This document shows, one piece after another, positions 45,238-47,384 of a stretch of 64,000 nt of DNA. The DNA comes from an uncultured Candidatus Altimarinota bacterium. Lineage in GTDB: Bacteria > Patescibacteriota > Gracilibacteria > BD1-5 > JAGOOR01. Under the pieces are notes generated by a model. That model searched no databases. It saw only the letters and a list, made by a program, of their open reading frames with translations, and was not told the DNA's origin. The stretch is taken from the NCBI GenBank assembly GCA_937924685.1, contig CALEVN010000026.1:20058-84057 (forward strand). The letters run 5' to 3'. Every line of letters starts with the position of its first letter. Position 1 is the first letter of the stretch. A program made the translations under genes and the position numbers.

Positions 45238-46209
45238 ATGAATATTTCAGACTTTTGACATGAGCTCACACATCAACTCAAGTCACTGCGACACATTTCT
45301 CTCATAGCCCATAAAAATCCAGATGGTGATGCTATGGGTGCGCTTGAGGGTATGCGTTGTTTGCTCTCGGATAATTTTCCTCATCTGGTAGTGGATGTTG
45401 TTATGCCGCAAGAAGATTTCGATGCCCATGTTTTCTGGGTTATGGGAAAGACGGAAGAAAATTTCTCAGACACTACTGATTGTATCATACTCCTCGATGC
45501 CCCACGGCTTACGAGAACTGCTCTGCCTCTTGAGGTATTTGCTGATAAAAAAGTACTCTGCATAGACCACCATGAATCGTTCGAAGATAGTATTCCTGGT
45601 TATGTCGATTCTCATGCGAGTGCGACATGTCTCATTTTGACGGAGATGGCACTCACTCTTGGCTGGAAAATCTCAGTGCAGGCTGCCACAGCTCTCCTCA
45701 TGGGTATTTATACAGATACAGGGGGCTTTATTCACAGAAGTACAGACACTCGGTCTTTTGTTGCAGCAGCTGAGCTCATGCGGTTAGGTGCTGATCAAGT
45801 ACGTATAAGTACGGAGGTCTTTGGTAACTACACTCTCCCATATTTGCATGATCTTGGTCGATGACTCTTGTCGATCGTTATTGTCGATGGTATAGCATGT
45901 CTCTTTCTCTGAGCCAATACCAATGCAGCCCTCAAAAACCACATTATAGGGTTCTTAAGTGGCCTCGCAGGTGTCGACATAGCCTGTGTCATGGTCGACA
46001 TAGAATGAGTCATCAAGTGCTCTTTTCGCACAAGAAAAGACACGATTGATGTCAATGAACTAGCAAAAAAACTCTGAGGCGGTGGCCACAAAAAAGCCTC
46101 TGGCTGTATCCTAGATGGACGTCTCCATGAGGGCATATTTCACTGGCAGTGACAGGAATATTCACCAACTACCTTTGCACAATTTATAAAAACTCTATGA
46201 CCACTCTAA
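45238..46209 (+). CDS. nrnA: DHH/DHHA1 phosphoesterase (NrnA-like oligoribonuclease/pAp phosphatase)
   Basis: ATG at 45238. Frame 1 joins to track ORF 45334..45864 and ends at TAA 46207-46209. Motifs are IAHKNPDGDAMGA, CIDHH, GIYTDTGGF and the DHHA1 motif G-GGGHKKASG. Confidence 0.7.
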
Positions 46210-47384
46210 GACTCCAAAAATATCTCTCCGAGTGTGGTGTGTGCTCACGTCGACATGCCGAAGAAGCTATCAAAAATGGCGAAGTTATCGTGAATGGTAT
46301 TCCTGCGCAGATAGGACAATCTATCGATCCAGAGGTCGACAAAATAGAATTCTCAGGCAAGCTCGTTCACAGAAGTGAGGCACTTGTCTACTATGCTATG
46401 AACAAGCCACGAGGCATCGAGACCACGTGTGCTCAAAAAGACGGAAAAAGCATTGTCGACATCATCGACACAAAGACACGAGTTTTCCCAATAGGTCGTC
46501 TCGATAAGGATTCCAGCGGTCTTATCCTCCTGACGAATGACGGTCGTCTGACACATCGATTGCTCCATCCCTCTTTCGAACACGAAAAAGAATATCTCGT
46601 GACGACGTATGGAAAAATAGACGATATCTCTCTCAGACAGATGAGTCAATGAGTGCGCTATACTATCACAGAAGGTCCTCGAACTTCGCCATCTTCGACA
46701 CGTTCGCCAACACAGAGATTCCCAGCTCCGAAAACACCTCTCGTACCAAAAAAATTCGTCCAAACTCAACCCTGTGAGATAAAGAGAGTCAGCTCCGATA
46801 CGTTTCGCATCATCCTCAAAGAAGGAAAGAATCGACAGATCCGTCGTATGGTCGAAGCCTGTGGACATCAAGTAAAAAAACTCAAACGTATTCGCATCGA
46901 GCACATCATGCTCGGTGACATGCCAGATGGTGCCTATCGTGAGCTCAAGCGTGGTGAGCGAGAAGAGCTTCTTCGACGTGGAGCACTTCCTCTCGTTGAT
47001 TTCGCACCTATTTCTGGCGAGGTTGTTCATGGCGATGGTCGTGGCCACAGTATAGGTTTTGCAACAGCGAATATAGTCTTTCCTGCTGGTGTAGTTCCAG
47101 ACAAGACATTTACATGTCGTGTGACCATCGATGGTGAGGTATTTCTCTGAGCAGGTTCATATCAGCCAAAAAAAGGACATTTCGAAGTGCATATTATTGA
47201 TTTTGATCGTGATATTTACGGAAAAAATATTCATATCGACATCATGGACATTATCCGAGATAATAGAGCATTTAGTTCTGTCGAAGAACTCAAAAATCAG
47301 ATCACAAAAGACGTCAATCATGTTCGTGCACACTGGCAGAGTCTCCTCAATAATCCAGAGGAGAAAGCAAAGAGAAGTAAGTAG
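46197..47384 (+). CDS. fusion protein: S4 domain + RsuA/RluB/RluF-type pseudouridine synthase + riboflavin kinase domain
   Basis: Frame 0 joins track ORFs 46149..46652, 46653..47150 and 47187..47384. The S4 domain is LRLQKYLSECGVCSRRHAEEAIKNGEVIVNG. The synthase core has RLDKDSSGLILLTNDG and EGKNRQIRRM. Then, with no stop of any kind, comes ISGEVVHGDGRGHSIGFATANI...FEVHIIDFDRDIYGKNIHIDIMDIIRDNRAFSSVEELKNQITKD, which matches the RibF C-terminal kinase domain. Confidence 0.75.

Follow-up and report, generated by a model that had tools for sequence, protein, structure and literature searches.

A pseudouridine synthase of the RsuA/RluB/RluE/RluF family and a riboflavin kinase are joined in one open reading frame (ORF) within a 64,000-nucleotide (nt) stretch of contig CALEVN010000026.1 (assembly GCA_937924685.1), from an uncultured Candidatus Altimarinota bacterium of the Gracilibacteria. 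This whole stretch is called the window below. The fusion is genuine, conserved across one genus of small-genome Gracilibacteria, and no assembly error. Judging from sequence, we consider it most likely, at a probability of roughly 0.7, that the single polypeptide carries two independent enzyme activities, that of the synthase and that of the kinase.

The fused reading frame and its conservation

Translated with table 25, the frame from 46197 to 47384 on the forward strand has no TAA or TAG ahead of its terminal TAG, and its two in-frame TGA codons encode G152 and G318. The ATG at 46197 coincides with the N-termini of the orthologues. All three Pfam domains of the ORF exceed their curated cut-offs: S4 (PF01479, 34.8 bits against 22.8), PseudoU_synth_2 (PF00849, residues 65-221, 69 bits against 26.8) and Flavokinase (PF01687, residues 272-378, 91.3 bits against 19.6, E 7e-26, model positions 7-122 of 124). 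The front part also exceeds the cut-off of NCBIfam TIGR00093, the RsuA/RluB/RluE/RluF pseudouridine synthase subfamily (143.9 against 109.3). The first-pass annotation, made from the letters alone, had described one frame with two TGAs and no stop between its parts, composed of an S4 domain, an RsuA/RluB/RluF-type synthase and a RibF-type kinase domain; the table-25 translation, 13 orthologous ORFs and these scores bear it out. The features of the ORF are as follows.

46197..47384 (+), whole fused ORF, 395 amino acids (aa), table 25 (TGA = Gly), ATG to TAG
46206..46313 (+), S4 RNA-binding domain, aa 4-39 (PF01479)
46389..46949 (+), pseudouridine synthase catalytic core, aa 65-251, broken by a variable insert (PF00849, TIGR00093, Foldseek match to RluF)
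46497..46520 (+), RLDKDSSG with the catalytic Asp D103, identical in 13 of 13 fused orthologues
46650..46652 (+), in-frame TGA read as Gly152, opposite GGA, GGT or GGG in 10 orthologues and TGA in 2
46671..46754 (+), hypervariable Pro/Ser/Thr-rich loop, aa 159-186, varying in length and sequence
46980..47009 (+), junction GALPLVDFAP, aa 262-271, where the end of the synthase tail passes straight into the kinase domain
47010..47330 (+), riboflavin kinase (Flavokinase) domain, aa 272-378 (PF01687; aligned to the kinase modules of 3op1, 1mrz and 2x0k)
47055..47072 (+), GFATAN, the kinase PTAN motif, residues 287-292, with Thr and Asn retained and Pro replaced by Ala
47148..47150 (+), in-frame TGA read as Gly318, opposite GGN in 6 orthologues and TGA in 6
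47181..47195 (+), FEVHI, whose Glu E330 aligns with the catalytic base E268 of the Corynebacterium ammoniagenes FAD synthetase and is conserved in 13 of 13 orthologues

The reality of the fusion was judged on independent assemblies: 121 genomes were sampled from the order, 19 of them in the window's genus (species-level genomes). Fourteen of the 19 match the query over approximately residues 1-390 at one place, and 13 of these 14 loci, in genomes other than the window's, are one unbroken table-25 ORF with RLDKDSSG, G[FY][PA]TAN and FEV[HY]I. At one of the loci (L026, genome G089) the search returned two matched segments, which form a single unbroken ORF once an insertion in a kinase loop is allowed for. 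The remaining locus, L027:2-1464 (G312 C25), lies in a low-completeness metagenome-assembled genome (MAG) and is frameshifted inside the synthase half, by assembly error or as a pseudogene. The five genus genomes with no match to the fusion (74-90% complete) have no Flavokinase domain of any kind. Orthologous loci that uniformly showed two separate genes had been named at first pass as the outcome that would speak against a fusion; synthase and kinase are never split among the 19 genus genomes. At the junction, codons vary freely at synonymous sites and the frame is open in 13 orthologues. No ATG, GTG or TTG is conserved there among the 13, which rules out an internal start codon.

A search of 5.8 billion proteins returned ~20 clusters with the same three Pfam domains, at 66-85% identity and from four data sources. 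The shorter cluster entries end exactly where their full-length relatives have Trp (TGA as read by table 4), and are therefore gene-calling truncations rather than separate genes. The genomes that the fusion proteins come from are MAGs of uncultured organisms, with Candidatus Gracilibacteria or "Peribacteria" as their label. Outside the genus the architecture was not found: in the top 150 out of 1.84 billion cluster representatives, none but the cluster of the genus itself covers both halves. Ten synthase homologues of greater length were checked and contain no Flavokinase domain, and a search with the kinase region returned genus members and ordinary RibF proteins only.

Selection was measured as the ratio of nonsynonymous to synonymous substitution rates (dN/dS), by pairwise Nei-Gojobori comparison. 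Synonymous sites are near saturation in distant pairs, so the argument is carried by the close pairs. Values by region are given below; both halves are under strong purifying selection, and the Pro/Ser/Thr loop is nearly neutral.

Synthase core, dN/dS 0.01-0.06
Pro/Ser/Thr loop, dN/dS 0.4-0.6
Junction, dN/dS 0.08
Kinase, dN/dS 0.03-0.10
C-terminal tail, dN/dS ~0.8

The AlphaFold2 model of the protein has a mean predicted local distance difference test score (pLDDT) of 88.1 and a predicted template modelling score (pTM) of 0.76, with low confidence confined to the loop (pLDDT 59-67) and the tail. The junction is modelled at pLDDT 83-90, and the kinase barrel (residues 280-380), which has the six-stranded beta-barrel fold of riboflavin kinases, at ~90-96.

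The two halves and the flavin metabolism of the genome

In the synthase half, R101, L102 and D103 are near-invariant over 27 family members. Foldseek matched the front part of the model to RluF (3dh3, 38% identity, E 1.6e-23) and to the RluF catalytic domain (2gml, TM score normalised to the target 0.90, root mean square deviation 1.9), and its matches also include RluB and RsuA. The best equivalog model is that of RluF (NF007784), which scores below its cut-off (197 against 318), as does the RluB equivalog (NF007976, 116 against 290); the two equivalogs stand for synthases specific to rRNA site 2604 or 2605. The synthase half is not a member of the TruB family, whose structures appear only as remote fold matches in Foldseek (13-15% identity). 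In the genome as a whole, a motif search for TruB gave no convincing match. Its place in the RsuA/RluF family rather than TruB suggests that it acts on ribosomal RNA (rRNA) rather than transfer RNA (tRNA).

The insertion of ~25 aa rich in Pro, Ser and Thr that the first-pass annotation had pointed out (here residues 161-184) is real and present in every fused orthologue, as a fast-evolving loop rather than a conserved feature. It is shorter in the synthases of sister families and missing from more distant synthases. A double-frameshift artefact is ruled out as its origin, as its length changes by whole codons in 13 of 13 orthologues.

In riboflavin kinases the Thr and Asn of the PTAN motif bind Mg-ATP. 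The solved riboflavin kinases have GFPTAN at this position; 10 of the fused orthologues have GFPTAN or GYPTAN, and the window's protein and its two nearest relatives have GFATAN. The motif's Thr and Asn, the catalytic Glu, the kinase DIYG motif and the Arg of IR.N are all conserved in 13 of 13 orthologues. Foldseek matches to the back part were 5a88 (target-normalised TM 0.72), 3op1, 1mrz and human RFK (1q9s). The loop before the catalytic Glu is shortened both in the fused domain and in the stand-alone kinases of the order. NCBIfam models for RibF match the ORF through its C-terminal kinase part alone, and it is not a bifunctional RibF by TIGR00083, which scored 81.9 against a cut-off of 184.35 and matched over model positions 171-286 only.

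The window's genome (1.14 Mb, 92.8% complete) contains one Flavokinase domain, that of the fused ORF, which is thus its sole riboflavin kinase. It encodes proteins that depend on flavin mononucleotide (FMN), namely a Dus-family tRNA-dihydrouridine synthase and a flavodoxin, and the window itself encodes MurB with its domain for binding flavin adenine dinucleotide (FAD). Riboflavin scavenging had been presumed at first pass, in agreement with which neither RibH nor RibE was found in the genome. An importer of the energy-coupling factor (ECF) type, RibU, was likewise not found in the genome, nor was an FMN riboswitch (RF00050) in its 1.14 Mb. An EamA-family transporter, encoded ~2.3 kb before the start of the window (G000 C26:16923-17744), has 34% identity to one beside the kinase gene of genome G334 (L048:4472-5392), and is a weak candidate for the riboflavin importer.

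The first-pass annotation had also stated that no FMN adenylyltransferase domain is present, and had proposed a check for further ribF or FAD synthetase genes. This holds for the ORF and for the RibF-type domain: PF06574 (FAD_syn) was found neither in the fused ORF nor in the genome. For the genome as a whole it probably does not, since a RibL-like candidate is encoded elsewhere, outside the window.

G000 C25:79919-80326 (-), stand-alone RibL-like HxGH nucleotidyltransferase, 136 aa

This protein has an FHPGH motif, scores 56.1 with TIGR00125 (cut-off 27.7) and has its best PDB match, over its whole length, in 3glv (E 5.7e-22). It is 38-42% identical (E 2e-28) to the nucleotidyltransferase domain that is fused to the riboflavin kinase in sister family f2, described below. 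All 19 genus genomes encode a RibL-like nucleotidyltransferase, and its occurrence within the order is associated with that of the kinase (both in 19 genomes, kinase only in 0, nucleotidyltransferase only in 4, neither in 16; Fisher p 1.5e-7). From the f2 fusion and this co-occurrence we infer a role as FMN adenylyltransferase, making the protein a candidate FAD synthase. Archaeal RibL is described as an FAD synthase of the same fold (Mashhadi et al. 2010, as cited in PMC11423594).

Origin of the fusion and its genomic neighbourhood

How the two genes came together can be approached through the sister families f2 and f3, the two other families of the order. There the part matching query 1-261 (synthase) and the part matching query 270-381 (kinase) are encoded on different contigs or tens of kilobases apart. 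Neither gene has the window's neighbour genes there. Because synthase and kinase are not adjacent in these families and their neighbours differ, simple read-through between neighbouring genes fails to explain the join and is ruled out as its origin. Two forms of the kinase occur in the sister families, one encoded by a stand-alone gene of ~120 aa and one that makes up the N-terminal half of a ~250-aa protein, and in both forms its gene adjoins those for riboflavin synthase (Lum_binding, ribE) and lumazine synthase (DMRL_synthase, ribH). The C-terminal half of the ~250-aa protein is PF01467 (cytidylyltransferase-like), an inverted FAD-synthetase architecture. It was found in f2 at five loci.

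L051:3645-4394, f2 kinase-PF01467 protein
L052:4028-4780, f2 kinase-PF01467 protein
L053:3653-4441, f2 kinase-PF01467 protein
L054:3960-4730, f2 kinase-PF01467 protein
L055:4012-4752, f2 kinase-PF01467 protein

In a tree of kinase domains, the 14 fused domains form one clade (SH-aLRT 99) nested within a clade of the order's kinases (96), and the order's kinases stand apart from the kinase modules of RibF and from the other kinases of the class. One fused clade within the order's kinases, together with the short loop common to both, points to vertical inheritance and a single joining to the synthase, and thus indicates a single fusion event. RibH is absent from 17 of 19 genus genomes, including the window's; the two that still have it are G307 and the fusion-bearing G304. 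Its retention in G304 suggests that the fusion is older than the loss of riboflavin synthesis. The ancestral kinase may then have been the stand-alone or nucleotidyltransferase-fused form that sister families keep in the ribE-ribH cluster; in the ancestor of the genus it would have been joined once onto the 3' end of the synthase gene, and riboflavin synthesis would have been lost later in most species.

Other riboflavin kinase fusions were seen in the same class. The protein at L060:2063-3298 (G336 C1, family f3) consists of a riboflavin kinase and a ~290-aa C-terminal region with no Pfam match. At L056:2370-4118 and L058:1401-3044, proteins of 548-583 aa carry a riboflavin kinase at their C-terminal end, behind an O-antigen-ligase-like Wzy_C membrane domain. 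In family f25, kinase matches lie within open frames of 540-583 aa in at least 7 genomes.

Around the fusion, the conserved neighbourhood in the genus is (MurB)-(Ig-like protein)-DHH-fusion-(orf180)-GT4. The gene directly upstream is listed below; its stop and the start of the fusion overlap by 13 nt.

45238..46209 (+), DHH/DHHA1 (NrnA-like) gene, by Pfam matches, with genus-wide synteny by tblastn

Directly downstream, a 180-aa ORF (window 47418-47960, +) has no Pfam match at E <= 0.001 and is present, absent or inverted among genus members, with the flanking genes remaining syntenic. Two long ORFs in the window have no TGA codons, one of 737 aa with Ig-like surface domains (42947-45160, +) and one of 1194 aa with no Pfam match (49519-53103, +); the genes neighbouring them have 2-7. 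The sole Rfam match in the window at gathering threshold is one tRNA gene (32112-32193, -).

Function, precedents and significance

We propose that the N-terminal 260 residues would act as an S4-guided rRNA pseudouridine synthase, closest to RluF within its family. The uridine that it would isomerise would lie, as RluF and RluB suggest by analogy, in 23S rRNA domain V. The C-terminal 125 residues would be a monofunctional ATP:riboflavin 5'-phosphotransferase that converts imported riboflavin to FMN. This FMN would serve the tRNA-dihydrouridine synthase and the flavodoxin, and would be converted to FAD, for MurB for example, by the separate RibL-like nucleotidyltransferase. Rather than through mechanistic coupling, the fusion may be retained because it ties the last step of flavin salvage to a constitutively expressed housekeeping gene. 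Both activities and the rRNA target are what we infer from sequence, and so is the benefit of co-expression. The partners of riboflavin kinases across the class are diverse (the RibL-like nucleotidyltransferase, the Wzy_C membrane protein, the ~290-aa domain with no Pfam match), which fits a small, readily fusing gene.

Several observations weigh against two independent activities. With the synthase below both the RluF and the RluB equivalog cut-offs, its rRNA target is no more than putative. The kinase domain is ~9 residues short of the Pfam model, and the window's protein and its two closest relatives have ATAN in place of PTAN. Non-adjacency of the genes in sister lineages and the short, conserved junction speak against pure accident. 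The same junction, confidently modelled, together with the pTM of 0.76, could mean a fixed arrangement of the domains and hence some coupling.

These points have to be set beside the other explanations of the fusion. In one, the two activities are linked: the kinase domain might, for example, signal the state of flavin or ATP supply to the rRNA synthase, and through it to ribosome maturation, or the S4/synthase half might bring FMN synthesis to ribosomes under assembly or to flavoenzymes that modify RNA. We regard such coupling as unlikely. Its case is made by the junction (short, dN/dS 0.08, pLDDT 83-90), by a pTM of 0.76 that is reached in a three-module protein, by the failure of read-through as an explanation and by the widespread adjacency of truB and ribF; riboflavin kinases are also described as passing FMN to client proteins (PMC10086132). 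Yet pseudouridine synthases require no cofactor, the fusion is limited to one genus, the genome has no FMN riboswitch, and in other Patescibacteria riboflavin kinase is joined to unrelated partners, so that promiscuous fusion fits better than a specific link. No more probable, in our estimate, is the broader idea that flavin-cofactor enzymes and pseudouridine synthases are paired convergently and under selection, and that this reflects a physical or regulatory link between RNA pseudouridylation, in the maturation of ribosomes or tRNA, and the supply of FMN and FAD rather than mere genomic convenience. Alternatively, the kinase barrel might have been repurposed: it would no longer phosphorylate riboflavin but serve the synthase as an appended domain, either structural or binding flavins or nucleotides, in a cell that imports FMN or FAD. 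The Pro-to-Ala change in PTAN, the shortened loop between PTAN and the catalytic Glu and the lack of a recognised ECF RibU-type importer would suit this, and inactive kinase modules are on record for type II FAD synthetases (PMC2972280). We nevertheless find it quite improbable: every catalytic residue listed above is kept in 13 of 13 orthologues, the domain evolves at a dN/dS of 0.03-0.10, the order's ordinary stand-alone kinases have the same short loop, and the genome, which encodes FMN enzymes and a candidate FMN adenylyltransferase, contains no other Flavokinase.

That synthase and kinase are in fact separate proteins, owing to an overlooked stop or frameshift, to translation from an internal start or to proteolytic cleavage, is very improbable. 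The frameshift at L027 and the two segments at L026 might suggest so, but the former lies within the synthase half, away from the junction, and the latter resolve into one frame. Against it also stand the 13 independent assemblies and ~20 protein clusters that are open across the junction with free synonymous variation, and the lack of a conserved start codon there. Two independent activities on one polypeptide thus remain our preferred explanation.

Each half has close counterparts among known systems. E. coli RluF and RluB (3dh3, 2gml, 4lgt) likewise have an N-terminal S4 domain followed by a catalytic core with the RLD Asp, at 38-39% identity to RluF; unlike them, the fusion has the 25-aa hypervariable loop, and its riboflavin kinase stands where such synthases usually have a short or basic C-terminal tail. 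Bifunctional RibF/RibC proteins (C. ammoniagenes 2x0k, Thermotoga maritima 1mrz, Streptococcus pneumoniae 3op1) share a homologous kinase module with the PTAN Thr and Asn and the catalytic Glu. They differ in having an N-terminal FMN adenylyltransferase module, which the fusion lacks; its N-terminal partner is an RNA-modifying enzyme. Adjacency of truB and ribF (ribC) is established, and this neighbourhood also pairs a pseudouridine synthase with a flavin-cofactor enzyme. In the fusion, however, a synthase of the RsuA/RluF family is joined to the kinase only, not to the adenylyltransferase, and the genes are not adjacent in sister lineages. The RibR protein of Bacillus subtilis combines a riboflavin kinase with an RNA-binding domain that binds the FMN riboswitch, and so resembles the fusion in having a monofunctional kinase and an RNA-binding module on one polypeptide; its domain order is the reverse, and the RNA-binding part of the fusion is a full catalytic synthase. 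A RibR-like mechanism is ruled out, as no FMN riboswitch was found in the genome. The f2 kinase-nucleotidyltransferase fusion comes from the same kinase lineage and shows that the order's kinase gene fuses readily, but there the kinase is joined to the enzyme that follows it in the pathway and the gene lies in the ribE-ribH cluster, whereas the partner in the window is unrelated to flavin metabolism.

The fusion is thus a new domain architecture made from two well-known enzymes and restricted to one genus. A full-text search of the literature returned no paper linking riboflavin kinase and pseudouridine synthase as a fusion. A freshwater study of the candidate phyla radiation (CPR) states only that Gracilibacteria have pathways for riboflavin, FMN and FAD (PMC9166423). 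Source databases (Joint Genome Institute, JGI, names) label the fusion proteins solely as pseudouridine synthases, and metabolic reconstructions would therefore miss the sole riboflavin kinase and wrongly infer that no FMN is synthesised. Taken with the RibL-like nucleotidyltransferase, the fusion outlines a probable non-RibF route from riboflavin to FAD in a genus of Gracilibacteria, and it would date the shift from synthesis to salvage of riboflavin to within that one genus. It also brings a second family of pseudouridine synthases, and the kinase module, into the recurring association of such synthases with flavin-cofactor enzymes, in a small, readily expressed protein that makes the association directly testable.

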